Assembly: GCA_046563655.1 (NCBI GenBank)
Contig: CM102283.1
Location: 4,774,001 to 4,838,000, forward strand
DNA: 64,000 nt
Source: Yuukianura sp. NJ FZ-2021
Taxonomy: Eukaryota
Reading direction: 5' to 3'
Shown: positions 1,746-48,900 of the stretch, in pieces
How the letters are laid out: every line of letters starts with the position of its first letter
Numbering within the stretch: the stretch's first letter is position 1
Made by a program: the position numbers and the translations under genes
Notes under the pieces: model-generated
Database searches by the model: none
Seen by the model: the letters and a program-made list of their open reading frames with translations, nothing else
Told to the model about the DNA's origin: nothing

Positions 1746-3541
1746 GACTAACGTGTACTTCTGCTCATCATGTGAAAGACCACAAATATTCTCCCACGGT
1801 GGGGTAATGCCAACGGTTTTAAAAATTTTGAATGAAACAGAGACATTGGCTGCTAATTTTCGTACAGCTGCACCAATATTTTAGAAAGCACTTCTGTTCA
1901 TCGTTTGAAAGATCATATACACTCGTTAAACGATGTTCTAAGGTGTAATATAAGACGAACGGCTTTGAAAATTTTGAATGTAAGAGAAACTTTGGCTGCT
2001 GAATGTTTTAACGCTGAAACTAGATAGTAGAGCGCAAGTTACGTGTGCTTCGGGTCATCGTTTGAAAGACCACAAATATTCTTTGAAAGGTGTTCTGATG
2101 CCTAATATAAATCGAACGGCTTTGAAAATTTTGAATGACAAAGAAACATTGGCTGCTGTATGTTTTACCGCTGAAACTAGATTGTAAAAAGCGAGTAACG
2201 TGTGCTTCGGATCATCGTTTCAAAAACCACAAATATTCTTTCAAAGGTGTTCTGATGCCTAATATAAATCGAACGGCTTTGAAAATTTTGAATGAAAGAG
2301 AGAAATTGGCTGCTGTATGTTTTACCGCTGAAACTAGATTGTAAAAAGCGAGTAACGTGTGCTTTGGGTCATCGTTTGAAAAACAACAAATATTCTTTCA
2401 AAGGTGATCTGATGCCTAATATAAAACGAACGGCTTTGAAAATTTTGAATGAAAAAGAGACATTGGCTGCTGTATGTTCTACCGCTGAAACTAGATTGTA
2501 AAAAGCGAGTAACGTGTGCTTCGGGTCTTCGTTTAAAAGGCCACAAATATTCTTTCAAAGATGTTCTGATGCCTAATATAAAACGAACGGCTTTGAAAAT
2601 TTTGAATGAAAAAGAGACATTGGCTGCTGTATGTTTTACTGCTGAAACTAGATTGTAAAAAGCGAGTAGCGTGAGCTCCGGGTCCTCGCTTCAAAGACAA
2701 CAAATATTCTCTCAAAGGTGTTCTGATGCCTAATATAAAACGAACGGCTTTGAAAATTTTGAATGAAAAAGAGACATTGGCTGCTGTATGTTTTACCGCT
2801 GAAACTAGATTGTAAAAAGCGAGTAACGTGTGCTTCGGATCATCGTTTCAAAGACCACAAATATTCTTTCAAAGGTGTTCTGATGCCTAATATAAATCGA
2901 ACGGCTTTGAAAATTTTGAATGAAAAAGAGACATTGGCTGCTGTATGTTCTACCGCTGAAACTAGATTGTAAAAAGCGAGTAACGTGTGCTTCGGATCAT
3001 CGTTTCAAAGACCACAAATATTCTTTCAAAGGTGTTCTGATGCCTAATATAAATCGAACGGCTTTGAAAATTTTGAATGAAAGAGAGAAATTGGCTGCTG
3101 TATGTTTTACCGCTGAAACTAGATTGTAAAAAGCGAGTAACGTGTGCTTCGGATCATCGTTTCAAAAACCACAAATATTCTTTCAAAGGTGTTCTGATGC
3201 CTAATATAAATCGAACGGCTTTGAAAATTTTGAATGACAAAGAAACATTGGCTGCTGTATGTTTTACCGCTGAAACTAGATTGTAAAAAGCGAGTAACGT
3301 GTGCTTCGGATCATCGTTTCAAAAACCACAAATATTCTTTCAAAGGTGTTCTGATGCCTAATATAAATCGAACGGCTTTGAAAATTTTGAATGAAAGAGA
3401 GAAATTGGCTGCTGTATGTTTTACCGCTGAAACTACAGTGAGTGCCACGACAACCTGCACACCCTAAATTTGTTTCCATGGTAACAACTCAAACTATGGA
3501 GGAAATCCTGTTCCTACACAACCTGAGTTGAGAATTCGAAT

Positions 3542-4010
3542 TAGAGAGTAATTGCAAACCGAAATACAAAGCGGAAATATGAAATATGGAACTTATTGCA
3601 CAGCTTGCACGAAGAAAATTAAACTGTTGTTAAATTAAACAACATGTCAAACTGGAAAATTGTTTATGTTCGCAGTTTATGCGCAGTTAGTGCCAAGTTT
3701 GTGCGCAGTTGGTGCGCAGTTGGTGCGCAGTTGGTGCGCAGTTAGTGCGCAGTTGGTGCGCAGTTGGTGCGCAGTTAGTGCGCAGTTGGTGCGCAGTTGG
3801 TGCGCAGTTAGTGCGCAGTTGGTGCGCAGTTGGTGCGCACAAGTCAATTTTGCCAATCAGCGAATTCTTCTTCCTGTATTCTATATTTCGTAATCGAAAT
3901 AATTGAACTTTTCTATATTTCTCATAATCGAAAAATATAGAATATGGAACGTTCCATATTCTATATTCATATTCTATAAACTCTATAAAGTGAGTTGCAA
4001 TTACTCTCTA
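3542..4010. mobile_element. Inner inverted-repeat module (probable nested MITE) carrying an 11-bp minisatellite
   Basis: Perfect 16-bp IR TAGAGAGTAATTGCAA / TTGCAATTACTCTCTA; TSD ambiguous (possibly TA). Confidence 0.6.
3672..3840. repeat. 11-bp minisatellite (GTGCGCAGTTR)n, ~15 copies
   Basis: Direct tandem reading; explains the AQLVRSWCAV repeat ORFs. Confidence 0.95.
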
Positions 4011-5466
4011 ATATTTAGACAGGATTTTGTTAGGTTGTTTTGTGCAACATGTTTCCCCCCAGATTTCGCAAAATAAACAAAATAATTACTGTGGAGGTGT
4101 GCAGGTTTTCGTGGCACTCACTGTAGATTGTAAAAAGCGAGTAACGTGTGCTTTGGGTCATCGTTTGAAAAACAACAAATATTCTTTCAAAGGTGATCTG
4201 ATGCCTAATATAAAACGAACGGCTTTGAAAATTTTGAATGAAAAAGAGACATTGGCTGCTGTATGTTCTACCGCTGAAACTAGATTGTAAAAAGCGAGTA
4301 ACGTGTGCTTCGGGTCTTCGTTTAAAAGGCCACAAATATTCTTTCAAAGATGTTCTGATGCCTAATATAAAACGAACGGCTTTGAAAATTTTGAATGAAA
4401 AAGAGACATTGGCTGCTGTATGTTTTACTGCTGAAACTAGATTGTAAAAAGCGAGTAGCGTGAGCTCCGGGTCCTCGCTTCAAAGACAACAAATATTCTC
4501 TCAAAGGTGTTCTGATGCCTAATATAAAACGAACGGCTTTGAAAATTTTGAATGAAAAAGAGACATTGGCTGCTGTATGTTTTACCGCTGAAACTAGATT
4601 GTAAAAAGCGAGTAACGTGTGCTTCGGATCATCGTTTCAAAGACCACAAATATTCTTTCAAAGGTGTTCTGATGCCTAATATAAATCGAACGGCTTTGAA
4701 AATTTTGAATGAAAAAGAGACATTGGCTGCTGTATGTTCTACCGCTGAAACTAGATTGTAAAAAGCGAGTAACGTGTGCTTCGGATCATCGTTTCAAAGA
4801 CCACAAATATTCTTTCAAAGGTGTTCTGATGCCTAATATAAATCGAACGGCTTTGAAAATTTTGAATGAAAGAGAGAAATTGGCTGCTGTATGTTTTACC
4901 GCTGAAACTAGATTGTAAAAAGCGAGTAACGTGTTCTTTGGGTCATCGTTTGAAAAACAACAAATATTCATTCAAAGGTGATCTGATGCCTAATATAAAA
5001 CGAACGGCTTTGAAAATTTTGAATGAAAAAGAGACATTGGCTGCTGTATGTTCTACCGCTGAAACTAGATTGTAAAAAGCGAGTAACGTGTGCTTCGGGT
5101 CTTCGTTTAAAAGACCACAAATATTCTTTCAAAGATGTTCTGATGCCTAATATAAAACGAACGGCTTTGAAAATTTTGAATGAAAAAGAGACATTGGCTG
5201 CTGTATGTTTTACTGCTGAAACTAGATTGTAAAAAGCGAGTAGCGTGAGCTCCGGGTCCTCGCTTCAAAGACAACAAATATTCTCTCAAAGGTGTTCTGA
5301 TGCCTAATATAAAACGAACGGCTTTGAAAATTTTGAATGAAAAAGAGACATTGGCTGCTGTATGTTTTACCGCTGAAACTAGATTGTAAAAAGCGAGTAG
5401 CGTGAGCTTCGGGTCCTCGTTTCAAAGACAACAAATACTCTCTCAAAGGTGTTCTGATGCCTAATA

Positions 5467-8295
5467 CATACAGTTGGTAGACTCTAATAGACGCTAGAAA
5501 TCATATATTTCTGCATATGTCAAATCTGCTTCTAGCTCTTGCACCAGTCCAAATGACATGAAAAAACCGATATATAATATTTATGAAGTATACGCTCAGA
5601 TGTTTGCGTACGCAGTTGGCGGGTCAAAATCCTGCTGTGTTAAAAACTTATGAGTTAGAAACGAATGGTACATTTAGCCATTTACAAAGATTAGTTTTGA
5701 GCCAAAATACCTTCCTACCTCACATACAGTTGGTAGACTCTAATAGACCCTAGAAATCATATATTTCTGCCCATGTCAAATCTGCTTCTAGCTCTTGCAC
5801 CAGTCCAAATGACATGAAAAAACCGATATATAATATTTACGAAGTATACACTCAGATGTTTGAGTACGCAGTTGGCGGGTCAAAATCCTGCTGTGTTAAA
5901 AACTTATGAGTTAGAAAAGAATGGTACATTTAGCCATTTACAAAGATTAGTTTTGAGCCAAAATACCTTCCTACATCACATACAGTTGGTAGACTCTAAT
6001 AGACCCTAGAAATCATATATTTCTGCCCATGTCAAATCTGCTTCTAGCTCTTGCACCAGTCCAAATGACATGAAAAAACCCATATATAATATTTATGAAG
6101 TATACGCTCAGATGTTTGAGTACGCAGTTGGCGGGTCAAAATCCTGCTGTGTTAAAAACTTATGAGTTAGAAAGGAATGGTACATTTAGCCATTTACAAA
6201 GATTAGTTTTGAGCCAAAATACCTTCCTACATCACGTGCAGTTGGTAGACTCTAATACACCCTAGAAATCATATATTTCTGCCCATGTCAAATCTGCTTC
6301 TAGCTCTTGCACCAGTCCAAATGACATGAAAAAACCGATATATAATATTTATGAAGTATACGCTCAGATGTTTGAGTACGCAGTTGGCGGGTCAAAATCC
6401 TGCTGTGTTAAAAACTTATGAGTTAGAAAGGAATGGTACATTTAGCCATTTACAAAGATTAGTTTTGAGCCAAAATACCTTCCTACATCACATACAGTTG
6501 GTAGACTCTAATAGACCCTAGAAATCATATATTTCTGCCCATGTCAAATCTGCTTCTAGCTGTTGCACCAGTCCAAATGACATGAAAAAACCGATATATA
6601 ATATTTATGAAGTATACGCTCAGATGTTTGAGTACGCAGTTGGCGGGTCAAAATCCTGCTGTGTTAAAAACTTATGAGTTAGAAAGGAATGGTACATTTA
6701 GCCATTTACAAAGATTAGTTTTGAGCCAAACTACCTTCCTACATCACATACAGTTGGTAGACTCTAATAGACCCTAGAAATCATATATTTCTGCCCATGT
6801 CAAATCTGCTTCTAGCTCTTGCACCAGTCCAAATGACATGAAAAAACCGATATATAATATTTATGAAGTATACGCTCAGATGTTTGAGTACGCAGTTGGC
6901 GGGTCAAAATCCTGCTGTGTTAAAAACTTATGAGTTAGAAAGGAATGGTACATTTAGCCATTTACAAAGATTAGTTTTGAGCCAAAATACCTTCCTACAT
7001 CACATACAGTTGGTAGACTCTAATAGACCCTAGAAATCATATATTTCTGCCCATGTCAAATCTGCTTCTAGCTGTTGCACCAGTCCAAATGACATGAAAA
7101 AACCGATATATAATATTTATGAAGTATACGCTCAGATGTTTGAGTATGCAGTTGGCGGGTCAAAATCCTGCTGTGTTAAAAACTTATGAGTTAGAAAGGA
7201 ATGGTACATTTAGCCATTTACAAAGATTAGTTTTGAGCAAAAATACCTTCCTACATCACATACAGTTGGTAGACTCTAATAGACCCTAGAAATCATATAT
7301 TTCTGCCCATGTCAAATCTGCTTCTAGCTCTTGCACCAGTCCAAATGACATGAAAAAACCGATATATAATATTTACGAAGTATACGCTCAGATGTTTGAG
7401 TACGCAGTTAGCGGGTCAAAATCCAGCTGTGTTAAAAACTTATGAGTTAGAAAAGAATGGTACATTTAGCCATTTACAAAGATTAGTTTTGAGCCAAAAT
7501 ACCTTCCTACCTCACATACAGTTGGTAGACTCTAATAGACCCTAGAAATCATATATTTCTGCCCATGTCAAATCTGCTTCTAGCTCTTGCACCAGTCCAA
7601 ATGACATGAGAAAACCGATATATAATATTTATGAAGTATACGCTCAGATGTTTGAGTACGCAGTTGGCGGGTCAAAATCCTGCTGTGTTAAAAACTTATG
7701 AGTTAGAAACGAATGGTACATTTAGCCATTTACAAAGATTAGTTTTGAGCCAAAATACCTTCCTACCTCACATACAGTTGGTAGACTCTAATAGACCCTA
7801 GAAATCATATATTTCTGCCCATGTCAAATCTGCTTCTAGCTCTTGCACCAGTCCAAATGACATGAAAAAACCGATATATAATATTTACTAAGTATACGCT
7901 CAGATGTTTTAGTACGCAGTTGGCGGGTCAAAATCCTGCTGTGTTAAAAACTTATGAGTTAGAAAGGAATGGTACATTTAGCCATTTACAAAGATTAGTT
8001 TTGAGCCAAAATACCTTCCTACATCACATACAGTTGGTAGACTCTAATAGACCCTAGAAATCATATATTTCTGCCCATGTCAAATCCGCTTCTAGCTCTT
8101 GCACCCGTCCAAATGACATGAAAAAACCGATATATAATATTTATGAAGTAAACACTCAGACGTTTGAGTAGACAGTTGGCGGGTCAAAATCCTGCTGTGT
8201 TAAAAACTTATGAGTTAGAACTACCTCACATACAGTTGGTAGACTCTAATAGACCCTAGAATTTATATATTTCTGCCCATGTCAAATTTGCTTTC
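5467..8295. repeat. 256-bp satellite array (~11 monomers)
   Basis: CATACAGTTGGTAGAC starts at 5467, 5723, 5979 ... (period 256); one monomer near 8220 has an internal deletion. Confidence 0.97.
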
Positions 8296-12907: not shown

Positions 12908-15898
12908 TCAGTCTTTGAACATATCAACTTTGAATTGACTTGAATCCAAGAGAAGGTCTATCCTTGTTTGTGGAGTTGTGTAGGAAAACAGTTGCTCGTT
13001 GCATTCATATTGCTCTTCACCAGTCCAGTGACGCATCATGGTTTGTGCGCGAGGCACCAACGAAGCGACGTCGACATCTTTGACCTGCTCAGTAACAGAG
13101 GGAAGCCCTTTTCGCACGGAATCATACACGAGGGCATGGGGAGTAAAGCAGTCGAAGGGGATTGAACGGACGACCTCGGAGTTCTTGATGCCCTCAGCGG
13201 CCGCTTCGAACAGCAAAGAATGATCAACGTATCTTGCGGGCATAGGGGGTGCTGGTGGTATCTCCAATGGAGACTCCATCGCAACCCTCCATTTCGCCAT
13301 AAACGATCTCAATCGCTCATCTGATACATCCACTTTCCGATGAGCCAATAGTGGTTCTTGGTCCCATTCCTAAAAAAGAATAATAGTTTCAACAAAAATT
13401 CGCACCCGTCTTCAAAAAAAAAGCAGTGGGATAAAACTGTACTTGAATGAATACGTCCCCGAACGCGTTTCCATTGAAGAGAATAAATGGAGAAGGAAAT
13501 GCTTGGCTACGAGGTAGCTTTGAAGGCTTCATGAGACAAAATCCAGTGGTCCAAGCATTACATCTTGCCTTTGTCCGTTCAAAATCTGCCTGCCAGGCAC
13601 AACTCATCCCCTGCTCTTCTACAAAATCACTGAATTCTCTGGCGCTGCTTAAGTGGCGTGGGTGGGACTGCAAAATTGGGTTTCGTCGTTGGCACTCTGG
13701 TCGTTCTTGACAGGCCACATGACTTCTATCAAAGAAGGCACAAAACGTTTCTGAATTCCGCTGACTTCCCGCAACCAACGTTTCAAAGTTATCATCCTAG
13801 TCCAATTCAGAACAAAAGCTATGAGATACAGATCTGATAAAGTTCGTTAAAATCAATTCGTTTTAGATTCGTTATTTAAGTCTTACCGACAGCACATCCA
13901 TGTATGCTGGTGGAGATGCGAGTCCGTGAGAGATTTTGATCACGGGATTCCGCGGTACTCGGATGTCCATAAGCAGAATTCTTTGCGTAGTTCCGAAATA
14001 AAAGTGGAGTGGATTTGCGCTGCTGGTGGTAAGTGTTGAAATGTACTCGTCCAGACGTTCGTTCTTGTTTCGAAAATATTCCTGATCTGAAAATGACAAT
14101 GTGGAGGAGCTGTGAAGTGTAAACAGTTCCCGACTACTGACGGTATGTTGCACTCGTCGATCATGGAACTGAATTGCAGATTCTGACCAGTACAGAATCA
14201 CTTCAGGATGACCAGACACGTAGTTGACACCGTTCACGTTATTCATCAAATTCTGAGGACCGAATAGCTCTTCAGTAGGATACGATTTCTTGAATTCTTT
14301 TATGTGGCCCGTCACCTTTCTATACAATAATAACAGCAACGATTAATCAGTCATTTCAAAAAAGTTCACCTTTAGATAAGGAATTTAAAAAAATTCGAAT
14401 AATCAAAAATTTTTCATCATGACAGCTTACTCATGAGCGAAGTCGATGAATTGAATCACAGCATTCTCATCCACAGTAACCAATTCTGAAGGAAAGTTAG
14501 GATTGAGGTCAAACGAGGTCAACATAGGGTTCGGTTTTTCAATATCATTTGATAATCCACCGTACTTTGTACCGCAATATCCTACGTTTGGTATTGATGC
14601 TAACAAGGACGGAAGACCCTCTGCACCTATCACGTACATCTCAACGCTTTTCCCCCTCCGCACTCCGATTAGATTTCGCTTTCTTAGTGTCTTGATTTGG
14701 TAAATTTGTGAGCTTAGTGGATCATCCGAGTCTTCGAGTCGTAAGTCCACGTTCGATGGAACTTCCTCTTCCTCCCAAACACCAGCCAATTTGCACGAGA
14801 GCATTTCATTTGATTTGGAAGGAGTCAGTGACAGCATACCTACAGAAATTCACATTCTAATGAAGTTACATATTTGTCGTCTCTGGCCCCGTTCGTTACC
14901 CTTCGAATTTGCTTACGAAGCTTTGCTCCATTTCCAACAAATAAATAATTTGTGCCGCGCGCCTTGTCGAGGATGTAATTGCAAGCTCCGGTGCCATTGT
15001 ACAAGTAGTTCCAACTAGCTTTGACGCTGATTCGAGGAGCGTCCATAAACTTTTTGACGGTCTTTCCGGATGGTCTCCGAGAATCAGTTGAGCGGATCTT
15101 CGGAATCTGTGGATCCTCCGTATCCACAGCAGGTTCGGACTCGGCATACGCGTTGGCCTCCTTAGTCCTGTTTATTCTCGACCTTTTCTGTTTAATCAGA
15201 TTCTGTGCAGCTTCTTTAGTGTCCGCTGTTTTCTCAGAAGCTATCAGTGCTCTTCGGGTGTCCCAATGAGTCTTCAATTTCTCGCGATTCTTTGGTAAAT
15301 AAGGACTTGGACTAGTATTAGCAAGTGGCGTCTCGGAAGCAACTTCAGTCGCTTTATTCTTAGCTTCTTGTATAGCCATCACACGCTGGAGTGCATTTTC
15401 TCGCGCCTTGTCTTCCTTGCTGCTACAAGAACAAAACCATAAAATGTAATACTTAAAAAAAAATGTACTGTGATTTTTCGAAGGTGTAGCTTACATCGCT
15501 GACGGGAAGTAGTATTTGTGAAGTTTTTTAGCAGAATAATGTACTGCATAAACGTAAGCTTCCCAATTCAAAACAGGTAGGGCACAACTGTCGGTTTCTT
15601 CAGAGGGGTACATGATCAGCGGGAGAGCGATGGGGGTACGTGATGCGACAGGAAACGGGTTGTCCAACTGGTGACCCACACATCCTGGTGGGAGAATTAT
15701 TTCACCAGTCTTCTCACTAGTTACGGATGCATCGGCGTTTGGGTAGAGCGTGTCTGCTTGAATGCTGAGTGGTGGCGTGATTCCGCAAATTCTATTTAGG
15801 AATGTTGATCCGACGACGTCGTTGACATTATGGTATGCATTTTCATTCCGAGGGTATCGTTGTCCATAGCAGTTGGGCCAATGAACGGTAAATGCCAT
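12908..15898 (-). CDS. TAF1C: TAF1C-like (RNA polymerase I SL1/TIF-IB subunit C, Rrn6 family), multi-exon
   Basis: Six consecutive minus-strand ORFs separated by short introns. Motifs ILLMDIRVPRNPVIKISHGLASPP and LFNGNAFGDVFIQ resemble TAF1C's D.R.P..P.lkw.HGL.sP and GDvf.Q segments; family recognised from memory. Confidence 0.7.
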
Positions 15899-16319
15899 TA
15901 CTCAATAATCATAAAATGCTTCCTTTCACTGTCTCCCGTCTCAACTTTTCTGAAATTGGAATGGTATACATATTAGTTAGTATTATTTAGATACTATTAG
16001 GTTAAGTTTTACTAGGTTTCCTACTAATTAGATTAAGTTTGTGATCACGAGAATACTTATCATACTCCTTTAGGGATATATCCGTTGACCTGCTGATACC
16101 TATCTTTGGTTGTCTCTTTGGCTGCCAGTTTAGTGGTGAGTTAATTTGGTAGTTTATTACTGCCAGTTAGTTATTTATTATTATTACTAATTGAACCAAA
16201 TTCGAAATCCGAAATGTGAATGTGAAAGTGAATAGGTCTTTTTGTTTTTAGAATTTTTAGAACTTCTAGAATTTTTGAAATTAATGAGGCGATTTACAGA
16301 TTCGCTTATACGCAATTTC

Positions 16320-18380: not shown

Positions 18381-21300
18381 ATGGCCACAGACTCCAAGAT
18401 TTCCAAGAATGTGTCCAAGTCCATAGGCCGTGCCAAGGAAAAGGTTCGTTCTACCACTTTTACTTCAATTTTAAAATGAATGTTTAAATTGCGGTTTTTG
18501 GTTTGTTTGGGGTTAAACCCTAGCCATGGAATTAATCGCGGTCATCAAATGAAACTAGGGGTTGATGATGGGGAAATGGGTTGTTTTAATTGATTTCCCA
18601 CTTCTCTCTCATTCTCTTCATGTCTTCTGATCCTGTCTTTCGGTTCTCAGTTGGTTGCTTGTCCTTAACTTTCTGGTATTTAGGTGACGGTGATGTCGGT
18701 CTCAATCTGGGTCAAATTCAACTTGTTTCCTTCAATTGGGTTTACCATTCAATTCCTCGTACTTAGAAGAACAAACGGGGTTAAGGTGGGAGAGACGGGT
18801 AGGGTTTATGCGTTTGTGAGGCTTCAGCCCTTTTATGTCATCCGCCACTAGCATCAATTAGAGTTCCCTGACCTCTCGACATTCATTCAGAGGGCATACG
18901 TGGGGACACAATATTTGACCGCCTATTACACGTATGTGTAATGATTTCGCGTTTATTCTCTACAGCCTTGTAAAATAATTAACCCGGTTACCTTTACTTT
19001 TTTGTCACTAGGTTAGTTGTTTACTTTACTGAGCTAATTTACAGTATAGTCTAGTGATAGACACCTTTTGTTAGGTAGGGCCTTCTACGCTGCAAAGACT
19101 TAAGAAAGACTGACCACTAATTTCTCACGAATTTTGTTATGGAAATGTGAGAAAACAAAAGCTTAACTTTTTTGTACTAACAAAAAGGAGAAAGTTATGG
19201 ACCAAAGCTACGATGTTCCAATTTGGCCAAAGACACAAAAGGAAGGCTTGGGTGCAGGGGTGCGCTTACACACTTTGTTCCATCTAAATACACACACAAG
19301 GAGAGGGAAATGTTATAAAGTGTGTTCAACTTTACTTGACTTGACGCTATTTCATACTTGAACAAGGTTCACAAATAACCAAGTTCTAAAAGTTCTAAAG
19401 ATCGAGGAAACATCCCTACTCTCCTCGTCAGAATGCCAGCCAGCCAGCGTTGAGTCAATTCTGCCCAGTATTTTTGGCACTCTTCCTCTGCCTACTTACC
19501 TACACAAGTTAGACTTTATTTCTGCACGAGACACAGACATTATTAGCAACTGAATGTACAGTGCATCCGCTTTAGTAACGATGCCGTTGGGCTCTTAGTT
19601 TTGTGCATAGTAAGTAGCAACTCTCCCTCTCAACACTTAGGCCCCAATATGCCCTAAATGGATATGTCCTAATGAAAGTTTGATGCGGAATTTAGGTAGG
19701 CGAAGGGCAAAACAATTGAACAATCTTTCATTTTTTTCTCGAGAATCGACCTCCACCCACGCAAACGACCAAAAGACGCGTTCGTGCGCACCTTAATCAC
19801 CTCCTTGCTCATACTCAAGTTTGTTTTTTTCCTTCCTTAGAAGTTATATCATGTAACTTTTACTGACAAAAAAAAAACGTCGGTAAATGCCAATAGATGA
19901 AGTCTAAATAAATACAAATGCAATTTCAGTGGGGCACAACAAACGCGGGAGGGAGTTCGTTTGATGGAAATGATGATTTCAAATGTGTTGCTAAGCAGCA
20001 TGGGTTAACTTCAAGGGCTGAGCTTAGGTTTCTTCGGAGGACTCACAGTGGAGTCAACAGGCTCTTCGGGCTGAGAGGCCTCTCCAGTGGATTGGTTCCC
20101 TCCACTGTCGTCTTGGGTTTCTTCGCCTCCACTTGGTGTGGGCGAAGTCAAAATAGACCGTAACCGCCATTCCAGTGCACTGTGCAGAGTCTCTGCATCT
20201 CCCGGCGAGCACTACGGAAGCCAAAGATTTTCGTTAAGTGAGAGTTCGATTAGTGTATTTGGTTTATAAAGGAGGAATTAAATATCACCTGGATTAGAAA
20301 CAGTTTTACGCCACTTCCACCGCCATCTTCATGTCCAGTAATCTTGATACATTTTTCACTTGATCTCTCGATGACCATTTGAGGGAAGACAGGAGTGTTT
20401 AGCATGAGGCGTAGACTCCCTTTTGTCCTTACAATCAATCGCGAATGTAAAACTCCCCCTTCTTGACGATCGTTCAATCTAAGTTGCCCTCTTCCACGCT
20501 CAATCCAGGAGCTGTTGGTAACGTCAAAGGCAAACAGGCGACAGGAAGCCTATTAAAGTAGGGAAAGTTCGAAAATTATGAAACATGTTAGGTAAAATCT
20601 TGCAACAAACTGTAACTTTTCGTTAGTACTTACTTGCATAACATTAGACTCGTCTTCTTCTCCAGTTGTCACGGTACAAGTGGAGTCCCACTTCCGTTTA
20701 CCGTTATCGGGAGAAGATGTGCTGGGTGTAGCAACGCTGTCTCCACCGTTTTCATGTCGATCGCCATTAGCAATTCCCTTACTGATGTTCTGTTGTAACA
20801 TGAAAAAATTGTTTTAGAAAGTTGAAAATTATCAGCACAACAACTTTAGCACTTTCTGAATAGCTTAAATTAACTATATTTACCTCAACACGGTCATTTA
20901 GGTTGCTTCCAAAAACGAATCCGGCTGGGGGTGGAGCATTGTAATTTAGTCCCTCCTTCTTAGGCTCTTCTGTTACCGATGAAGAAGATGTTGGTTGAGT
21001 TTCATCTTCTGGAGTTACCGGAGGTTTAGTAGTTGTTTCTTCTTTTCCGGTAGTTGGCTTCTCCGCTTGCTTGTCACTTCCGCCTGCTTCTGAGCTGTCA
21101 GGATCCTTTGATTCCTGTGAAGTGTTCGACGCAGTGGATGATACTGAAGGGGCTGGCTTTGTCTCGGCTTCTGCAGAAGTTACTCCATCAGAATTCCCGG
21201 GTGATTTGCAGTTATCCGACCCGAGTTGAAACGGGGAGGTGGGGAGTGGGGAGTGGGGAGGAGTCCTCCCCACTCCCCACTCCCCGTCGCAGGTTCCCAT

Positions 21301-24300
21301 GGTTGAAACGGGGAGTGGGGAGGAGTGGGGAGTGGGGAGGAGTGGGGAGTGGGGAGGAGTGGGGAGTGGGGAGGAGTGGGGAGTGGGGAGGAGTGGGGAG
21401 AGGAGTAGGGAGTGGGGAGGAGTAGGGAGTGGGGAGGAGTGGGGAGGAGTAGGGAGTGGGGAGTGGGGAGGAGTAGGGAGTGGGGAGTGGGGAGGAGACG
21501 AAAACTCTAATGTGTGCTTTACCAAACCTAACTCCGCGCCTGCGGCGCGGGCCATTGAACAAACGCATTGCGGATAAGTCTGAGATTGATAAGGGCAATT
21601 TCCGTCATGCGTTTTGTTCAATGGCCCGCGCCGGAGGCGCGGAGTTAGGTTTGGTAAAGCACATGTTAGTGATTTCGTCTGTAGGTTAGGCTGTGCCAAT
21701 GAAACGGGTTAAGTTTGATTTTGTAACATTTCACCACTCCTCCCCACTCCCTACTCCTCCCCACTCCCCACTCCTCCCCACTCCCCACTCCTCCCCACTC
21801 CCCACTCCTCCCCACTCCTCCCCACTCCCAGTTTCAACCGTAACATATCATGGGGAGTGGGGAGGAGTCCTCCCCACTCCTCCCCACTCCCAGTTTCAAC
21901 AATGGTAATATAGGACGGGGAGTGGGGAGGAGTCCTCCCCACTCCCCACTCCCCACCTCCCCGTTTCAACTCGGGTCGGATAACTGCAAATCACCCGAAT
22001 TCCCTAGTTTTACTAGCCCGTCTCCAGCCTTCGTGTCATTTGATTTGGCATCGAGATCTGCCGGAGGTGAAGCCTTCGTAAATAAGTTCGTTCCAACATT
22101 TGCCACCAACTTGCTCGGTCTGAGAAACGATGAAGTGGTAGTAGTAGTTGTCGGTGCCGCAGCAGCAGTACTCGTCCCATCTTCCTCTGGAACCGTTATT
22201 CGCTTTGTCTTGAAACTAAGGAAGGGATTTGAAGGTGTTGGATGAGAAGTTGGTGGGAATCCTTGCGTGTGGGGCGAATAGGCTGGCGCTGACGTAGCCG
22301 CCGATGATGTAACTGAAAAACGTAAATAAACGGTGGATATTATTACTTATTTACTAAAAACGGCACTGTCTACAGGCTGTTTTTTATGAACATTCGACTC
22401 AGCAGCAGCACTTATCTTTGACCATAGTCACTAACTTGTTTTGTTGATATATAAGGCTTAGGCTACCAATACAAAAAAGTGGTATATAGTAGTAAGCTTA
22501 AGCTTAGAATTAGATAAGTTTACCTTCTACTTCTTCTGCTGGGCCTTCCATTGAATTACCAAACTTGTCTGTCAGTGAACTTGTAAATGTTATATTTGGA
22601 TAAACTCGGAGTAGTTTTTGTGAGCTGGTACTGGAGTATCTTATGAGAAGTGTAGCAAGAAATCAGATGATGGAGACGTTAAGTACACAAATGATACGAT
22701 ACTACAAAATTAGTACCAGTATAGTAACAGATTATCACAGTGAGTATTGATATTCAACGGCTTAACCGTTGAATTACTCTAATCAAGAATTTGGCTAATT
22801 TGTTCCGATATTTCGATTCGGTAGTAAAGTTTAGTATGGTCTGTCCTTCTGTCTGAGCTTTGTGAGGAACAAGATGGGAGAAACCCATAGCAAATCTGGT
22901 TGGGATGAACGGGGGCTTTGAGTTTGAGTTTGGTGGTGGGTTGGATTTGGATCCGCATAAACAGCACCCAAGTAGGTCTTCTTCGTCAGGCGCCTCGTTT
23001 GGGTACGCTATGAAACTTTCCTGTAAAAGAGATTTTTTTCTTTTATAAAGTAAACCACTGAGGAATTAATTAAAATTCACTTTAAAATTAATTTAAGATA
23101 ATTACAAAGTTGTTTTCCATAGAATTATAATCGAAATTATGCTTTATATCAACAGATCCTGCAGAATTTGGGGAAGGTGGATCGAACGGCAGACGAAATA
23201 TTCGACGAGCATGTAACGAACTTCAACAAACAACAATTTGCTGCCACTAGACTCCAGAAGGAATTGAACAATTACATCCGATGTCTTCGAGGTAATTCAC
23301 ATTTATTAACTCTTCCGCTATCTACTCCGGGTGATGCATGTAAAGAATTAATTAATGTTTGACATTTCTTCAGCGACTGCAACTGCGAATCGGTCTCTGA
23401 TGGAGGCTGTGGCCGATGTGTACGAATCCGACTGGTGTGGGAAGGATCAGCTCACCCAGAGCACGCAGACGACAGAACTTCTCTGGAATGATTTTGCACA
23501 CAGACTTGCTGAACAAGTTCTCATTCCGTTGAACACTTATCAGGTGAATAAACCGCCATGTAAATTTTACTAATTGAAATACTAACCTGTGTTCAATTTA
23601 TTTGGACAGGCGCAGTTCCCGGAAATGCGGAAAAAGATCGAGAAGCGTGGGCGGAAGCTGGTTGACTTCGATGGTGAACGCCATAGCTTGCAAGCCCTCC
23701 AGTCAAATCCACGGCGAGCCGAAGGGAAGCTGGCCAAGCAGAGGGAAAGTTTGGAAGGGGCCAAACGAACTTACGAAGTAAATCGATTTTTCCACAATTT
23801 TGTTTGGTTTCGTTGAATTTAAAAAAAAACGTAGGAGTAAAATATAATTTGAATTAATAGGTGCTGAATTCTGAACTGCATGAAGAGCTTCCAGGCTTGT
23901 ACAACTCTCGAATCGTTTTCCTGGTCAGCGCCCTGAGTACACTTTTTGCTTCAGAGAATATTTTTCATTCAGAATCAAACAAGGTAAAGACGGTTTTAAA
24001 GACTACAAACTAAATTGGAGTTAAGATTTTCACAAATTTTTGTGTTCAGATTTACAACGAGTTAGAAGGTGTGGTTGAACGTTTGGCTCGAGAGACTGCG
24101 AAAGGAACGCTCAACTTCAAATCTTCAAACGCAATTTTGAACAACAGTTCAGAAAGCCACTCGGACGGTAAGTTGAAAACCGCAATTTTTAGCTTTTAGT
24201 TTCAGCTAACTGATTCTAGCTGCTTCAAGTCGGGTGGATTTTTCATTTTCGTAACTTTTACAACAACTTACAGTTTTTCTAACAAGTTTTTGGGGTTTTG

Positions 24301-24667
24301 AACTAATCCATTTGGTTTTTACTACTAAATGATCTCACGCCTTTTGCTAGTTGAGTTAATTAACAAGCTAATTTGAAGCGGTTGTTAAGGTCAAGGTGAC
24401 ATGAGTCCAACTGCTCCTCCAAAGGCGGATGACATGGGGGCAGAAACAAAGGAGAGTAGTCCTAACGCCTCCGCTTCTCCTGGATCCGACGATTGCGCAG
24501 GAGCTAACCCATCTAACCCGCCCGTGACCAACGGTGTTGATCACGAGCCTCAGAAAGATGTTAGTGATGGCGGAGTGAATGGTTCTTCCTCTCCAGGACC
24601 AAAGTCACAGCAGAGGCAGAAGAATGGGCATCAGAGGTCAACTGAGGAGAAGGGGCAGGTCAAAGCT
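18381..24667 (+). CDS. Amph: Amphiphysin/BIN1-family N-BAR protein, multi-exon, 3' end lost at assembly gap
   Basis: Exon 1 18381-18443 [21 protein letters not shown]|gt joins exon 2 at 23156 [19 protein letters not shown]; later exons give [43 protein letters not shown] and [18 protein letters not shown], all N-BAR hallmarks; no SH3 exon seen. Confidence 0.93.
20011..22551 (-). CDS. RanBP3: Ran-binding protein 3-like (FxFG motif + RanBD), nested in amphiphysin intron 1, exon 2 interrupted by a MITE
   Basis: ATG 22551; [86 protein letters not shown]-terminal PPKKPKL; TGA at 20013-20011. Confidence 0.9.
21199..21996. mobile_element. 798-bp palindromic MITE with G-rich subterminal repeats (Mutator/Merlin-like termini)
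   Basis: Long TIR beginning GGGTGATTTGCAGTTATCCGACCCGAGTTGAAACGGGGAGG; 8-bp TSD GAATTCCC at 21191-21198 and 21997-22004; (GGGGAGT/GGA)n arms; central hairpin 21496-21680. Confidence 0.93.
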
Positions 24668-24767
24668 NNNNNNNNNNNNNNNNNNNNNNNNNNNNNNNNN
24701 NNNNNNNNNNNNNNNNNNNNNNNNNNNNNNNNNNNNNNNNNNNNNNNNNNNNNNNNNNNNNNNNNNN
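24668..24767. other. Assembly gap (100 N)
   Basis: Run of N; coding sequence on the left does not resume on the right. Confidence 1.
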
Positions 24768-36650: not shown

Positions 36651-36755
36651 TATCCTTCAAATAGAAGGTAAAGCTATATTTGAACAGCCATAATCTCTGT
36701 CCCAAAATAGGTTAGCACACATTTTGTGTTCATACCCTCTAACCTATAAAACACA

Positions 36756-39700
36756 ATGTCGGGAAGAAAAAGAGAGTTGTCCATGACTCCTGAAGCCATT
36801 CGCAAAAGACTTGCCCGTGCCCGTGAAACCGAACAAGAAACAATTAGACGTCGGCAGTCGTGTGCTGAACGCCAGCAAGTGAGAAGAACATTACTGTCAG
36901 ATGAAGGACAAGTGGGTTTTGACTATTCGAATATTGTGGATGAACGTACTGTCGTAGAATATTTCGTAGGCAGTATGACTGCCCGATGTGGACACTGTAA
37001 TTCAAAAAATTTTGAAGGGGAAAGGTCAAGTACTACCAAACAATTTTCGTCATGCTGCGAGCATGGAAAAATAATTTTGCCTAACCTAAAGACTAATGAG
37101 TTAATATCTAACCTAATGAAAGGTGACCATGAATTAGCTCGGAATTTTGTGGAAAACATTAGATCCTACAATAGTGCATTAGCTTTTGCTTCTATGGGGG
37201 CTCAAATTGTGCCACCACCGGGCTATGGGCCATATTGCTTCCGTATTCACGGGCAGATTTACCATTTGACTGGACCACTGCACCCACGTCAAGGGGAAGA
37301 GCCCGAATACGCCCAACTGTACATTATTGACGCAGAAGAGGCGTTAACTAATCGAACAAATCAGAATTCCAATAAAGGTTGTAACGCAGCCCTGATGAAT
37401 GAGTTGGACATCCTAATGCGCAACGTTAACCCTTTTGCTCAAGCATACAAAATGATGCGAGAATTTGAACTTGAAGAAGAGGAATTAGCTCGACAGGAAG
37501 GTCGAGTTCCTCATCAAATTTCAATGTCTATTGTAAATGACTACTCTGATGATCAGAGGAGGTATAATGCCCCAAGATGCAACGAAGTTGCGGTGGTATT
37601 TCAAAATACTTTGGGCGAACCTCCATTTAACCGGGACATAAGGATCCATTCTCGAGCTGAAAATAGAACTCAGCCGATTAACTTTTTACATAAAAAGTGT
37701 GATGCAATGACATACCCATTGCTGTTTCCCTACGGCGACAGCGGTTGGACTATAAATCTAACCGTGGGTAAAGCATTAAGCAACCAATTTCAAAGGCTCT
37801 CAATCGGTGAAATTGAAGAGCCAGACAATGACGATGACAATAAACAAAAGATTAGCCAACTGCAGTACTATGCTTACAGATTGGCGGTAAGGGACGAATT
37901 TAATCCTATCTTAAATGCTGGCAAACTAACGCAACAATTTATTGTTGACAGTTACGTTAAAATTGAAGCTAATCGGCTTAACTACATTCGTATGAATCAA
38001 AAGGCTTTGCGAGTCGACAGTTATGCCGGGCTTATGGATCATGTAAACAACACTGCTCAGAATAAAGGGCTAAAAGCAGGGACTGCAGTGATTCTGCCGT
38101 CATCTTTTATTGGAAGCCCAAGAGCAATGGCACAAAATTTCCAAGACGCAATGACAATTGTTCGGAAATATGGAAAGCCAGATCTTTTTGTAACAATGAC
38201 ATGCAATCCAAAATGGCGGGAGATTACAGAAAATCTCGATCCTTGGCAAAGGGCTGAATTTCGTCCTGATTTAGTTGCACGAGTTTTTAAACTTAAACTA
38301 AAAGAACTTTTGAATGATATTCTAAAAAAGAATATTTTTGGAAAAGTTATTGCATACGTTTATGTCATTGAGTTCCAAAAACGTGGCCTTCCTCACTGCC
38401 ATATGCTTTTAATTTTAGACGAGGAAAATAAACTGAAAGAGCCCGACTCGATTGACAAAGTTGTCAGCGCAGAAATACCAAATCCTGAAACCCACCCAAG
38501 GCTTCATGCAATAGTTATGCAGAATATGATTCATGGACCTTGCGGGCAAATGAATTCGTCTTCTATTTGTATGAACAACGGAGAATGCTCAAAAAAATTC
38601 CCAAAGGGTTTTGTAAATGAGACAAACCCAAACCAAGACGGTTATCCACAGTACCGAAGACGTGATACTGGGTTAGAATATAAAGTCGGAAATCACATGA
38701 TTAACAACGCTTGGGTTGTTCCCTATAATCCATTTCTGTTACTGAAGTATAACAGTCACATTAATGTAGAAGTGTGCGCCTCGATTAAGAGCGTCAAATA
38801 TTTGTACAAGTACATCTACAAAGGGCATGATTGTGCCAATGTGCGCCTAGACATATTAACTTGGGATGAACCTGCCCAGTTTGTGGATTCTAGATACATT
38901 AGTGCTCCAGAAGGAGTTTGGCGTATCAGAAAATACAAAATGGATGACACATCCCATGTAATTAAAAGACTCCCCGTTCATCTCGAAAATATGCAACAAG
39001 TTTATTTCGAAGAAGGGGATGAAGAAGGAGCTTTTGAAGAAGCGAATCTAAGCAGTTCGATGCTTCAAGCCTACTTTGAATTAAACAAGGCTGATACAAA
39101 TGCCCATGGATTTCTCTATTCGGAAATTCCTGAGAATTATACCTGGGACCGAAAATGGCATAAATGGAACCCAAGGAAAAAAGCCTTTGGGAAAACCATT
39201 TCTAGAATGTACACTGTTTCTGTGTCTCAAGGCGAATTGTTTTACTTGAGGCTGCTCCTCTTACATGTAAAAGGAGCACATTCGTTCAAAGACGTTCGAA
39301 CGGTACATGGAACTGTCTATGACACATTTAAAGAAGCTGCTATTGCTTTGCAACTTCTTTCTGATGATTCCCAATGGGAGAGTTGCATTTTGGATGCTAT
39401 AACTTACCAAATGCCATACCAATTACGGGATTTATTCGCAATGATTTGCGTTTTTGGACCACCCACGGATCCTAAGGCACTCTGGGAAACTTATAAAGAA
39501 GATTTCCTGGAAGATTATTTAAAGGAACATTCTCCTGAGCTGGCAGAGCAACTGGGCTTGCGAGATTTAGAAGAAACTCTAAATCTACATCGCAAATCTT
39601 GCGTTGAATACAACCTACCCATGCCTAGAGATGACTTGGAAGATCTCTTAGGAGGTATTGACATTCAAGCTCTTGCTTCTGAAGCAGAGCGTTTGACTGA

Positions 39701-41108
39701 AATGTTGAATGCTGCCCAGAAGGAAGCTTATGATGCGATTTTATTGGCAGAAAATGCTGACACGTACAGCAAATGTTTTTTTATTGATGGCCCTGGAGGA
39801 AGTGGTAAAACCTTCCTCTATAATACTCTTGATAAAACTTTTCAAGGTAGAGGCTTAAAAACATGCTTAGTAGCGTCAACTGGATTGGCAGCCACACTAC
39901 TGGAAGCTGGAACGACGTACCATTCCAGATTTGGACTTGGAATCCATACAAATGAGACTACAACGTCTAAAATAAAGCCAACATCTAAAGAGGCAAAGCT
40001 TCTTCGCGAAGCTTCAATTATTATTTGGGACGAAGTCACAATGACTCCATGCTACAACATGGACGCCGTGGACCGTCTTTTTAGAGAAATAATGGGAATT
40101 AATAAACCATTTGGGAATAAGTTATTCCTAATTGGGGGAGATTTTAGACAAACACTCCCAATTGTAAAGCATGGTAAACGTGCCCAAATTGTTCAAGCCT
40201 CGCTTAAAAGAAGCAAAGTTTGGAAGTTTTTCAAACCCCTTAAGCTTCTCGAAAATATGCGTACAGGCCCGGCAGAAATTGCATACAATGAATGGCTCCT
40301 TGATCTAGGGGATGGAAAATTATCCAATGAATACAATTTGGGAGAAGACTTAATTGAACTCCCAACCGATTGTATCGAGGAAAATGATTTAATTTCTTCC
40401 ATTTTTGGCGAAAAGGTTTCGCTGGATGAAGAAAATGTAAAAGCTTTGGCCAAAAAAGCTATATTAACGCCAAAGAACGAACATGTTCATCAACTAAATG
40501 AACAAATATTAAACCGCTGTGACGGCCAAGAAGTCGCTTATTTCAGCACTGATTCTGTCGATGACGACGGAGAAGGTTCGGCAGAGGACTATCCTGTCGA
40601 GTTTATCAACACCCTGACACCATCTGGGTTTCCACTTCATCACCTAAAGCTCAAAGTTGGAGCAATAATTATGCTTCTGCGTAATTTGAATAAAAGGCGC
40701 GGCCTATGTAACGGCACACGACTGATTATTAAGTCGCTAAAACCAAATGTAATTTGTGCAGAGATCCTGCAAGGCAGGCACGAAGGACAGCAAGTCCTTT
40801 TACCTAGAATTGACTTGGTTTCCTCCGAAAGTGACTTTTCAGTTGAAATTCGGAGACGCCAGTTTCCAGTGGCCTTGGCTTTCGTTATGAGCATTAACAA
40901 AGCCCAAGGACAGTCACTGGATTCTGTTGGTATTTACTTGCCATTTCCAGTGTTCAGCCACGGTCAATTATACGTAGCATTCTCTAGGTGCACCAAACAA
41001 GAAAAAGTACGGGTAAAATTGATTTCCCGAGAAAATCAAGGAAAATTGGTGCCTGGAGTAAATAAATGGTTTACAGTTAACTGTGTTTACAAAGAAATCT
41101 TTGCGTAA
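36756..41108 (+). CDS. Helitron RepHel transposase (Zn finger, HUH Rep endonuclease, PIF1-family helicase), 1450 aa, intronless
   Basis: CGHC..CCEHG; Rep motifs PDLFVTMTCNPKW, VIEFQKRGLPHCH, KYLYKYIYKG; helicase motifs GPGGSGKT, IIWDE, GGDFRQTLP, QFPV..INKAQGQS, FSHGQLYVAFSR. Confidence 0.98.
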   Translation: MSGRKRELSMTPEAIRKRLARARETEQETIRRRQSCAERQQVRRTLLSDEGQVGFDYSNIVDERTVVEYFVGSMTARCGHCNSKNFEGERSSTTKQFSSCCEHGKIILPNLKTNELISNLMKGDHELARNFVENIRSYNSALAFASMGAQIVPPPGYGPYCFRIHGQIYHLTGPLHPRQGEEPEYAQLYIIDAEEALTNRTNQNSNKGCNAALMNELDILMRNVNPFAQAYKMMREFELEEEELARQEGRVPHQISMSIVNDYSDDQRRYNAPRCNEVAVVFQNTLGEPPFNRDIRIHSRAENRTQPINFLHKKCDAMTYPLLFPYGDSGWTINLTVGKALSNQFQRLSIGEIEEPDNDDDNKQKISQLQYYAYRLAVRDEFNPILNAGKLTQQFIVDSYVKIEANRLNYIRMNQKALRVDSYAGLMDHVNNTAQNKGLKAGTAVILPSSFIGSPRAMAQNFQDAMTIVRKYGKPDLFVTMTCNPKWREITENLDPWQRAEFRPDLVARVFKLKLKELLNDILKKNIFGKVIAYVYVIEFQKRGLPHCHMLLILDEENKLKEPDSIDKVVSAEIPNPETHPRLHAIVMQNMIHGPCGQMNSSSICMNNGECSKKFPKGFVNETNPNQDGYPQYRRRDTGLEYKVGNHMINNAWVVPYNPFLLLKYNSHINVEVCASIKSVKYLYKYIYKGHDCANVRLDILTWDEPAQFVDSRYISAPEGVWRIRKYKMDDTSHVIKRLPVHLENMQQVYFEEGDEEGAFEEANLSSSMLQAYFELNKADTNAHGFLYSEIPENYTWDRKWHKWNPRKKAFGKTISRMYTVSVSQGELFYLRLLLLHVKGAHSFKDVRTVHGTVYDTFKEAAIALQLLSDDSQWESCILDAITYQMPYQLRDLFAMICVFGPPTDPKALWETYKEDFLEDYLKEHSPELAEQLGLRDLEETLNLHRKSCVEYNLPMPRDDLEDLLGGIDIQALASEAERLTEMLNAAQKEAYDAILLAENADTYSKCFFIDGPGGSGKTFLYNTLDKTFQGRGLKTCLVASTGLAATLLEAGTTYHSRFGLGIHTNETTTSKIKPTSKEAKLLREASIIIWDEVTMTPCYNMDAVDRLFREIMGINKPFGNKLFLIGGDFRQTLPIVKHGKRAQIVQASLKRSKVWKFFKPLKLLENMRTGPAEIAYNEWLLDLGDGKLSNEYNLGEDLIELPTDCIEENDLISSIFGEKVSLDEENVKALAKKAILTPKNEHVHQLNEQILNRCDGQEVAYFSTDSVDDDGEGSAEDYPVEFINTLTPSGFPLHHLKLKVGAIIMLLRNLNKRRGLCNGTRLIIKSLKPNVICAEILQGRHEGQQVLLPRIDLVSSESDFSVEIRRRQFPVALAFVMSINKAQGQSLDSVGIYLPFPVFSHGQLYVAFSRCTKQEKVRVKLISRENQGKLVPGVNKWFTVNCVYKEIFA

Positions 41109-45905: not shown

Positions 45906-48900
45906 CCGGCGCCTCATTTGGGAACATAACCCAAATGCAATTAAAAATTGAAAAGAAAAACCATCTCAAAATTGAAGTTTTTTGGAAAGTGGTGGATTGA
46001 AGGGGATAGGTTGCAGCTTCTGGGTGACTTGAGAGGTGGACTAGGTCTCTCTCCAGGGAAGCGTACCTGGGAAAGTCTTTGCGAGACCCTCCACTGCAAC
46101 TTTCTCCGGGGTTTACAGAAAGAGATGTACTTCAATTCTGAGATAGTACTCTGAATGTTTAAAGTTGAATTACTCGCTCATGTGTTCTGTGTTCTACTCT
46201 CTACTCTAGAAAAATAAATAAAGTTAAATTAAGTTAAATTGGGGTAAATCTTACACTAAGTTGAATTGGAATAGGTTGAAATTATTAAAATACACTTATC
46301 CTAAGGACTTGCAGGTTCTTCAGTTTCTTCGGTTGGTTGTGGTTCAGGGAGAAGGGGACAGATCTTGACCACAGGTCTCTTCAAAGTGTGATCTCGAAAC
46401 TTGGTTAGTTGTCCCTCCTTAGGACCCTTCTTGACAAGTTGACTTGTACGAAAGTTGACCTCAACAGTTCGGATGAGACCGTCATGACCTGGGAACACTT
46501 GGGTGACTCTGGCCAATTTCCATTGCAGTGGAGTGACGTCATCATCTTTGATCAGGACCAATTCACCAACTTCGATGTTCTTCATAGGCTCCTTCCACTT
46601 TCGTCTCTCTTGTAATGAATGAATGTAGTCATCCTTCCACTTCTTCCAAAAATGCTCCAGAAGTATTTGGACTCTCTGCCATCTGGATGCTCTGTTTTCT
46701 TTGATATGGAGTAGGCTCGGCTCTGGAACGGAAGTGAGTGGCTTTCCGATTAAGAAGTGACCGGGTGTAAGAGCCTCGTAGCTGTCTGGGTCATTTGATA
46801 TGGCGAATAACGGGCGAGAATTTAGCACAGCTTCGACCATGGCGAGAATGGTATGGAATTCTTCGAGTGTGAGAACTTGTGATCCAACGGTTCTTCGCAA
46901 GTGATACTTCACACTTCGAACTCCAGCCTCCCATAGACCTCCCATGTGCGGAGCTTCAGGCGGATTGAACTTCCAGTCAATCCCTTGATTGGCTAAAAAC
47001 TGATGAATCTCATGATTAGAACCTTTAAGAAACTTTACCCACTCTGCTAACTCGTTTGCTCCGCCGACGAAGTTTGATCCGCAGTCGGAGCTGATGGTAA
47101 CTGGAAGACCACGTCTGGACACAAATCGTTTCAGTGCAGCGAGAAATGCATCAGTGGTCAGATCCGTTGCCGGCTCAAGATGGACTGCTTTGGTACTGAA
47201 GCAGATGAAAATGCAGAAGTAGACGGTGAACTGCTTTTTGCCTCTGCCTATTGTCTCTTGTGCTTTGAAAGGGCCAGCATAATCCAACCCTGTGTGTTCA
47301 AATGTAGATGATGGTGTTACCCTCTCCTTAGGTAAATTGCTCATCATCTGTTCGTATGTTTTGGCTCTCATCCTCTTGCATTTGACACACTGGTGAAGCT
47401 CACGTCGAATTGATGATCTGGCTCTTATGATCCAAAATTCACGTCTCAGATTGGCAAACATGTGTTGATAATTGGCGTGATGTAGGAGATGATGTCGATG
47501 GTGAATGATCAGCTTTGTAAATTGGTGTTTTCCAGATAAAATAATCTGGTGTTTCTCTTCTTCTGGCAGATTTGAGTGATGGAGTCTGCCTTTGATTCTG
47601 AGTACTCCTTTCTCGTCTAAAAATGGGGTTAAGCATGACAGTTGACTCCGTTTAGGTAACATTTTACCATTCTCGATTCGGCTGATCTCTTTGGCAAATT
47701 CTTCTCTCTGGCTGGCTCTGATGCATGTAGTAAAGGCGGAATCGATTTCTGCTACTGACAGTTCGCCTGTCCAGCGCTCCTCGGGCTGCAATTTCCTAGA
47801 ATTGTAGATAAAACGAAGAACATATGCCACAGCTCTCTTGAGCCGGACAAGGTTAGAGAAACGCTGGAAGAATGAAGTGTCAATTAACATGGAATTGATT
47901 ATGACCTTCTCAGTTTTCAATTCTAAATCAAAATCAATTGACTCTTTTGACTCAAAATTGGGTAACTCACGTTCTCGAAGGAAGTCTGGTCCTCTGAACC
48001 AAACCCCAGTGTTTACCAGTTCCTCAGCACTGATACCTCTGGTTCCAAGATCAGCGGGGTTGAGTTTACCAGGCACAAAGTTCCAACACTTTGCTGGCAG
48101 CACATCTTGAATTTCTGCAATTCTATTTGCAACAAAAGTTTTAAACTTACGTGAGGAGTTCCGCAGCCAGTGCAGAACAATCTCACTATCACTCCAGGTT
48201 GTGATTTGGCAGTTGAGATGTAAGGCTTCCGTGACTTGATTGATGAGCCTTGCCAGAAGTAACGCTCCACATAGCTCTAGTCTCGGTATGCTGATTTGTT
48301 TTAGTGGGGCTACCTTCGTCTTAGATGCGATGAGATTAGTTGAGACACAGTCTCCTCTGATGCAACGGACATAAACGACTGCACAATATGCCGTTTCAGC
48401 TCCGTCCGAGAAACCATGGATTTCCGTTAGTTCCGCTTTCTCTGTAAATAAAAATCTCGGAATTTTGATTAACTTTAAATGATCGATGCTCTTCTCGAAT
48501 TCGATCCATGGGCCTCTCAATTCAGGTGGAACTTCCTCGTCCCAACCCAGGAGGTGCTTAGTTCCATTTAGATCAATCGGAATCCACAGTTTCTGAAAAA
48601 AGATCTTAATAGACACAGTAAATGGAGCTAAGAAACCCAAGGGGTCGAAAACACGACTCATGGAAGATAAAATGGTCCGTTTCGTAGCTCTCTCAGTGGA
48701 TGACGGACTATATCCGGCAAAGTGAAAACTGTCACTTCCGGAATCCCAGCAGACACCCAAGGCACGTACTAAATTCGTTGATTCTGATTTTAAATTAGAG
48801 TTTTTGCCTTGTAACTCTCTCGGAATGAATTTGAGTGTCTCGATGTCGTTTGAATCCCACTGAGTGATTTCCAAACCTGCATTTTTTAGCAGATTGGTCA

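Follow-up and report, generated by a model that had tools for sequence, protein, structure and literature searches.

We analysed a 64,000-nucleotide (nt) stretch of the Yuukianura sp. NJ FZ-2021 genome (assembly GCA_046563655.1, contig CM102283.1, positions 4,774,001 to 4,838,000 of the forward strand), here called the window, in which a 798-bp transposon-like element lies within the second coding exon of a minus-strand, RanBP3-like gene and interrupts it. All positions below are those of the window. A sequence-only reading of this DNA had proposed that the element, a miniature inverted-repeat transposable element (MITE), creates a new, in-frame, introner-like intron. We inferred five coding exons for the host gene, linked by short GT-AG introns. 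The fourth exon encodes a Ran_BP1 domain (Pfam, E = 2.7e-07), and this Ran-binding domain exon, used as a query, found five related proteins with a top identity of 58%; the protein collections searched thus contain no near relative, and none of their matches was a protein of this species. The relative P0002, which carries the source name Ran-binding protein 3, aligned to the gene by tblastn with an E value of 1.5e-25. An FxFG-type motif, GFVFGSN, closes exon 2 (E2), and the layout of RanBP3, with a single C-terminal Ran-binding domain preceded by an FxFG-type motif, is present. The earlier naming of the gene as RanBP3 agrees with the domain match, the motif and the alignment, and the host is, by its predicted protein, a RanBP3-like gene of nuclear transport. 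The remainder of E2 encodes a low-complexity linker rich in Ser, Thr, Pro, Ala and Glu, for which no relatives were found among 514 candidates scored (0/514) or among 1.84 billion cluster representatives (0 matches).

The element has 81-nt terminal inverted repeat (TIR) arms that are 99% complementary. Its tips are identical over 27 nt, a comparison in which none of 100 shuffles reached 2 matches, and both TIR ends begin GGGTGATT. A direct repeat, GGGAATTC on the minus strand, borders the element on both sides and is perfect in 8 of 8 bp. Nearly the entire element forms one inverted repeat, in which 17-nt tandem units (GGGGAGTGGGGAGGAGT and its complement) flank a central hairpin, and its transcript folds as one giant stem (-638 kcal/mol, z -37). 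The open reading frames (ORFs) within it are translations of the 17-nt repeats, and none of the four internal ORFs had a Pfam match. Of the features of a MITE, the TIRs with a flanking target-site duplication, the small size and the lack of coding content are present; the name also implies a family of many copies. The position, length and structure given by the sequence-only reading, an element of 798 bp in mid-exon, proved correct. We read the element as a non-autonomous, foldback MITE-like DNA transposon, and the perfect duplication and near-identical TIRs indicate that its insertion is young. No further copies or fragments of it occur within the window, and a TIR 24-mer had no match in metagenome, viral and prokaryote contig collections, which hold few animal genomes.

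When the element and one copy of the direct repeat are taken out, E2 is 623 nt long and reads through 207 codons without a stop. This stop-free ancestral exon shows that the insertion lies in coding sequence and is a true transposition. The insertion adds 806 nt to E2, and the early in-frame TGA that had been described inside the element is there: on the minus strand, the frame continues past KLGNS into the element and ends ten codons later, with a read-through product of 124 residues. The allele is broken at the DNA level. The remaining exons and splice sites of the host gene are intact.

Splice sites were scored with position weight matrices (PWMs) built from 14 introns inferred in the window, of which 4 belong to the host gene, 5 to a BAR-domain gene and 5 to a third gene, where they rest on ORF continuity alone. 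All 14 are canonical GT-AG introns. The candidate donor lies just inside the upstream TIR arm, in the context GG/GTGATT (the slash marks the exon border), and its 5.3 bits place it second among the 57 GT dinucleotides of E2 and the element; in leave-one-out scoring, 4 of the 14 real donors score lower. Two of the 14 inferred introns, including one in the host gene (CAG/GTGATA), have donors that begin GTGA. The candidate acceptor is the AG of TTCTGCAG in the ancestral exon. Its score of 6.8 bits is the highest among 90 AGs, it exceeds 13 of the 14 real acceptors (leave-one-out), and only 2 of 305 exonic AGs, the candidate included, score as high or higher. A branch-point-like CTGAT precedes it; this motif is a weak criterion, because YTRAY is absent from the last 60 nt of 5 of the 14 real introns and present in the other 9.

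Joining 21994 to 21171 would remove 824 nt against the 806 nt inserted, for a net change of -18 nt that keeps the frame and costs the residues DGVTSA. These six residues lie in a linker that is, as far as its sequence tells, unconserved and tolerant. The split would leave new exons of 318 and 287 nt with natural splice sites at their outer ends. Because the tips of the element are identical, the same donor is offered in either orientation. On all these points (the donor-like site, the acceptor with its upstream CTGAT, the splice arithmetic and the donor in both orientations) the sequence-only reading was borne out. Its description of the 3' arm as pyrimidine-rich holds: the 3' part of the element is 75% pyrimidine with no AG in its last 45 nt. 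In the 17 nt directly before the CAG at 21171, however, the value is only 47% (41 to 76% in the 14 inferred introns). An AG-free, pyrimidine-rich stretch of 82 nt lies upstream of the CAG and of the nearer GAG at 21183. The GAG had been offered as an alternative acceptor; it is in frame (-6 nt), as claimed, but at -9.3 bits it is a very poor site, and we set it aside. The sequence prerequisites for splicing are there, namely a TIR donor, a cryptic acceptor that keeps the frame and a linker tolerant of loss.

How often such a configuration would arise by chance was estimated by simulated insertion of the element at 3198 positions within 4.8 kb of inferred exons. By a PWM criterion, 19 to 133 of the 3198 positions (0.6 to 4.2%) offer an in-frame acceptor of at least 6.0, 4.0 or 2.4 bits within 40 to 60 nt, and this rarity hints at survivorship of a tolerable insertion.

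Several findings weigh against productive splicing at these sites. By a simple criterion that takes the first YAG with 47% pyrimidines or more ahead of it, 47% being the value of the candidate itself, 17.8 to 22.0% of the same 3198 positions, or about one in five, are in frame. The acceptor PWM is also noisy: it is built on 14 sites and scores the T-rich acceptor that ends intron 1 at only -0.6. Being in frame would by itself come about by chance in roughly one case in three to one in five, and the noisy matrix together with the outcome of the simple criterion makes the evidence for selection behind the configuration weak. The proposed intron would be 824 nt long with a GC content of 0.59, whereas all 14 inferred introns span 66 to 222 nt with a GC content of 0.23 to 0.40. 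A local hairpin at the tip (-14 kcal/mol) sequesters its donor, as does the 81-bp stem of the full fold; the donor was paired in the 60-, 120-, 400- and 700-nt folds as well as the full fold, and partly paired at 200 nt. An out-of-frame exonic donor at 22013, 19 nt upstream, scores nearly the same (5.0 versus 5.3 bits). An acceptor and donor pair inside the element, at 6.1 bits each, would yield shorter introns and a 168-nt exon that meets a stop at its second codon in the host frame. Finally, the allele has been exposed to selection only briefly, as TIR arms that are 99% complementary and a perfect duplication show.

What we have is a real, young exonic insertion, and the allele is either leaky or null. 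The sequence-only reading had offered a tolerated intron gain or a recent null allele, and either may hold. Our tentative preference, held at somewhat less than even confidence, is for a leaky allele: some transcripts would be freed of the element by splicing from the TIR donor to the exonic CAG, and the rest would be degraded. For the RNA level we infer the following course. After a young foldback MITE with an 8-bp duplication had entered coding exon 2 of the RanBP3-like gene, U1 would in some transcripts recognise the GT at 21994, two bases into the upstream TIR. The spliceosome would pair this site with the CAG at 21171 in the ancestral exon, the first good YAG past the AG-free, pyrimidine-rich arm. 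The whole element and 18 nt of exon would be removed, and the resulting mRNA would lack six linker residues and keep the FxFG motif and the Ran-binding domain. The other transcripts, unspliced or mis-spliced, would go to nonsense-mediated decay.

A null or near-null allele is a serious possibility, to which we give roughly a one-in-three weight. Here the element would never be productively removed; transcripts would be read through, spliced from the 22013 donor or given the 168-nt central exon, and the message would be truncated after 124 residues or degraded. Such an allele could have been assembled because it is young, heterozygous, present on one haplotype, or in a dispensable gene. The stop ten codons into the element is in accord with it, as are the distance of the proposed intron's features from the local intron norm, the position of the donor within a hairpin and the equal scores of competing sites. 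The near-identical TIRs and perfect duplication point to youth, the in-frame layout is about a one-in-five chance event by the simple criterion, and an exonic MITE that abolishes expression is documented in potato, in the account of dTstu1 (PMC12595863). A leaky allele is favoured over a null one by the donor and acceptor, which score like real sites, and by the rarity of the configuration under the PWM criterion (0.6 to 4.2%). The other exons and splice sites are intact, which also speaks against a null allele, though a young null would look alike.

Other routes could spare the transcript the element or make the insertion itself illusory. In one, which we consider improbable, the exon-1 donor at 22523 would be spliced straight to the CAG at 21171, so that early E2 and the element are skipped together; it is conceivable that the CAG already served as an alternative 3' splice site before the insertion, and that only a long isoform is hit. 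The product would be in frame because the end of exon 1 and the 21171 acceptor are both in phase 1, and few exonic AGs score as high as this acceptor (2/305). Such splicing would nonetheless have to pass over a proximal acceptor at 22313 that has a long T-run and is 1.1 kb closer, it would skip a stop-free coding frame (22312-21172), and its intron of 1353 nt would be six times the longest inferred intron. We think it very unlikely that the insertion is an artefact of assembly or haplotype, or a somatic or rare event unrepresentative of the gene in the germline: a 100-N scaffold gap does lie 2.7 kb away, but a clean 8-bp duplication with complete TIRs marks true transposition and not misjoining.

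We regard as more improbable still a hairpin-guided, non-canonical removal, in which the paired TIRs would juxtapose the ends and excision would take place at or near the borders without GT-AG sites. The entire element folds into one stem that would bring its ends together, and MITE-derived introns of the tunicate Fritillaria borealis and the nonconventional introns of euglenids, as presented in PMC11282704, are precedents. These systems share with our case a MITE in a gene and TIR pairing that draws the intron ends together; their borders are non-GT-AG and their machinery derived or unknown (PMC11282704), whereas canonical sites are proposed here. All 14 inferred introns are canonical and nothing suggests a derived spliceosome in this animal, and the same source reports that the human spliceosome does not splice Fritillaria introns (PMC11282704).

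The comparison with introners turns on the origin of the acceptor. As described in PMC9860276 and PMC11282704, introners find their second splice site within the element or its duplication, and so are removed almost exactly in any context; they occur as many near-identical introns and are known from Micromonas, Aureococcus, Symbiodinium and others. A survey of 3,325 genomes reports them in only two animal groups (PMC9860276). Our element resembles them in being a non-autonomous TIR transposon that carries one splice site and is flanked by a duplication, and its 8-bp duplication matches that of the Aureococcus introners (PMC9860276). It departs from them in that its acceptor lies in host DNA 20 nt past the duplication, with 18 nt of exon lost, and in that a single copy is present in the 64-kb window, where none of the 14 inferred introns resembles it. 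There is no AG in GGGAATTC or in the last 45 nt of the element. Since element and duplication supply no acceptor, the insertion is not introner-like in the strict sense, and the term chosen by the sequence-only reading was too strong. A broader version, that the element family acts as an intron in either orientation and that we see an arthropod-like animal introner in the making, a newborn intron before fixation, seems unlikely to us. Under it, the palindrome would start any transcript that it enters with GG/GTGATT and a G-run-rich 5' arm and would end with an AG-free pyrimidine arm. The 3' arm would then hand the spliceosome to the first good host YAG, and the acceptor would be co-opted from the exon.

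By analogy, the insertion appears closer to the classical cryptic-site splicing of transposon insertion alleles than to an introner. Cryptic sites at their ends often allow Ds and dSpm of maize and Tc1 of Caenorhabditis elegans to be spliced out of exons. The case here is like those alleles in that a cut-and-paste element sits in a coding exon, with a donor in or beside the TIR and a fortuitous host acceptor, and in that removal would be imprecise, a few codons would be lost or gained, and a leaky allele would be expected. It differs in that the element is a GC-rich, full-length foldback and not a deletion derivative of a known autonomous element, in that it is known from DNA sequence alone, and in its arthropod-like host. 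The paper PMC12632400 concerns the intron of Tc1 itself and not exonic insertions.

By its 8-bp duplication and terminal GG the element fits the Merlin superfamily, or possibly hAT or P. Merlin elements are described with 8-9 bp duplications, TIRs with a terminal 5'-GG and TIR lengths of 24 to 462 bp (PMC8101967), and our element has an 8-bp duplication, a TIR start of GGGTGATT with terminal GG and a TIR length in the reported range. Foldback arms of tandem repeats, as seen here, are not among the Merlin traits stated in that source. No DDE_Tnp_IS1595 transposase ORF was found among the long ORFs of the window. The hAT and P elements also make 8-bp duplications, and hAT TIRs are short and begin YARNG. 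The terminus GGGTG misfits this hAT motif, though the length of the duplication matches.

The element has further properties of its own. In either orientation its 5' end is rich in G-runs, with 19 runs of at least three G in 300 nt, and its 3' end is 75% pyrimidine. Its RNA would give about 350 bp of near-perfect double strand, a possible source of small RNAs. Two ATGs on the minus strand inside it, at 21300 (in the context ACCATGG) and at 21555, are in the same open frame as downstream E2, and a transcript or re-initiation from them could encode an N-terminally truncated protein with the FxFG motif and the Ran-binding domain.

Intron births caught at their origin are rare in animals. If the 21995/21170 junction is true, the locus would hold a datable conversion of a transposon into a spliceosomal intron at the cost of six codons, and it would show that a palindromic element can supply the same donor whichever way it lies. 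If the element stays unspliced, this is an ordinary loss-of-function insertion allele and still a marker of recent activity of a foldback family that makes 8-bp duplications.

Table 1. Features of the interrupted RanBP3-like gene, the inserted element and the candidate splice sites (window positions)
Feature	Position	Strand	Basis or remark
RanBP3-like host gene, coding span	20011..22551	-	sequence reading, inferred intron borders, Pfam Ran_BP1, tblastn of relatives
Exon E1	22551-22524	-	holds ATG; ends in phase 1
Exon E2 as assembled	22312-20884	-	1429 nt; 623 nt without insertion
Exon E3	20789-20634	-	inferred
Exon E4 (Ran-binding domain)	20549-20289	-	Pfam Ran_BP1
Exon E5	20211-20011	-	holds stop
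Foldback MITE-like element, 798 bp, non-coding	21199..21996	.	inverted-repeat and ORF analysis
TIR arm toward 3' end of host transcript	21199..21278	.	81 nt, 99% complementary
TIR arm toward 5' end of host transcript	21917..21996	.	holds candidate donor
Target-site duplication copy 1, GGGAATTC on minus strand	21191..21198	.	sequence reading
Target-site duplication copy 2, GGGAATTC on minus strand	21997..22004	.	sequence reading
First in-frame stop (TGA) if element retained	21968-21966	-	ten codons into element
Candidate 5' splice site, GT in GG/GTGATT	21993..21994	-	two nt into TIR; PWM 5.3 bits
Candidate 3' splice site, AG of TTCTGCAG	21171..21172	-	ancestral exon, 20 nt past duplication; PWM 6.8 bits
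Branch-point-like CTGAT, A at 21188	21187..21191	-	A 17 nt before acceptor G
Alternative in-frame acceptor, GAG	21183..21184	-	-6 nt; -9.3 bits
Competing exonic donor, CTA/GTAAAA	22012..22013	-	5.0 bits; out of frame with 21171 acceptor
Possible poison exon, 168 nt, element centre	21523..21690	-	acceptor AG ending 21691 and donor GT 21522, 6.1 bits each

The window holds other genes and repeats around the host gene. The BAR-domain gene lies on the opposite strand (23157-24667, plus; Pfam E = 7.5e-07) and has short GT-AG introns; a 100-N scaffold gap at 24668-24767 breaks what seems to be its last long exon. The third gene (12911-15901, minus) has six long exons, with introns of 72 to 111 nt, and none of the six exon translations had a Pfam match. 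An ORF at 36750-41105 on the plus strand runs uninterrupted through 1452 residues with Helitron_like_N, PIF1 helicase and Pif1 2B domains, and it looks like an intact Helitron Rep/helicase gene.

A BEL/Pao retrotransposon occupies 46304-52286 on the minus strand, with a long gag-protease ORF (DUF1759, Asp_protease_2) and a pol ORF that carries Peptidase_A17, RVT_1, rve and DUF5641 domains. The best named relatives of its pol are from springtails, a scorpion and insects at 41 to 46% identity, the top match overall has 51%, and by these relatives the animal that bears the insertion is probably arthropod-like. A sequence of about 288 nt is duplicated in tandem between the retrotransposon ORFs (49813-50547), and each copy has a weak tRNA-like match (49845-49916 and 50133-50204; 31.4 bits against a gathering score of 29). 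An Rfam scan of the window returned these two weak matches only, neither of them at the element, and the duplication may be a tRNA-derived short interspersed nuclear element or a primer-binding relic. Large tandem-repeat arrays at 2337-5500 and 56000-64000 give recurring, near-identical minus-strand ORF translations, and GC skew is strongly positive at 28-36 kb, 42-46 kb and 52-56 kb.

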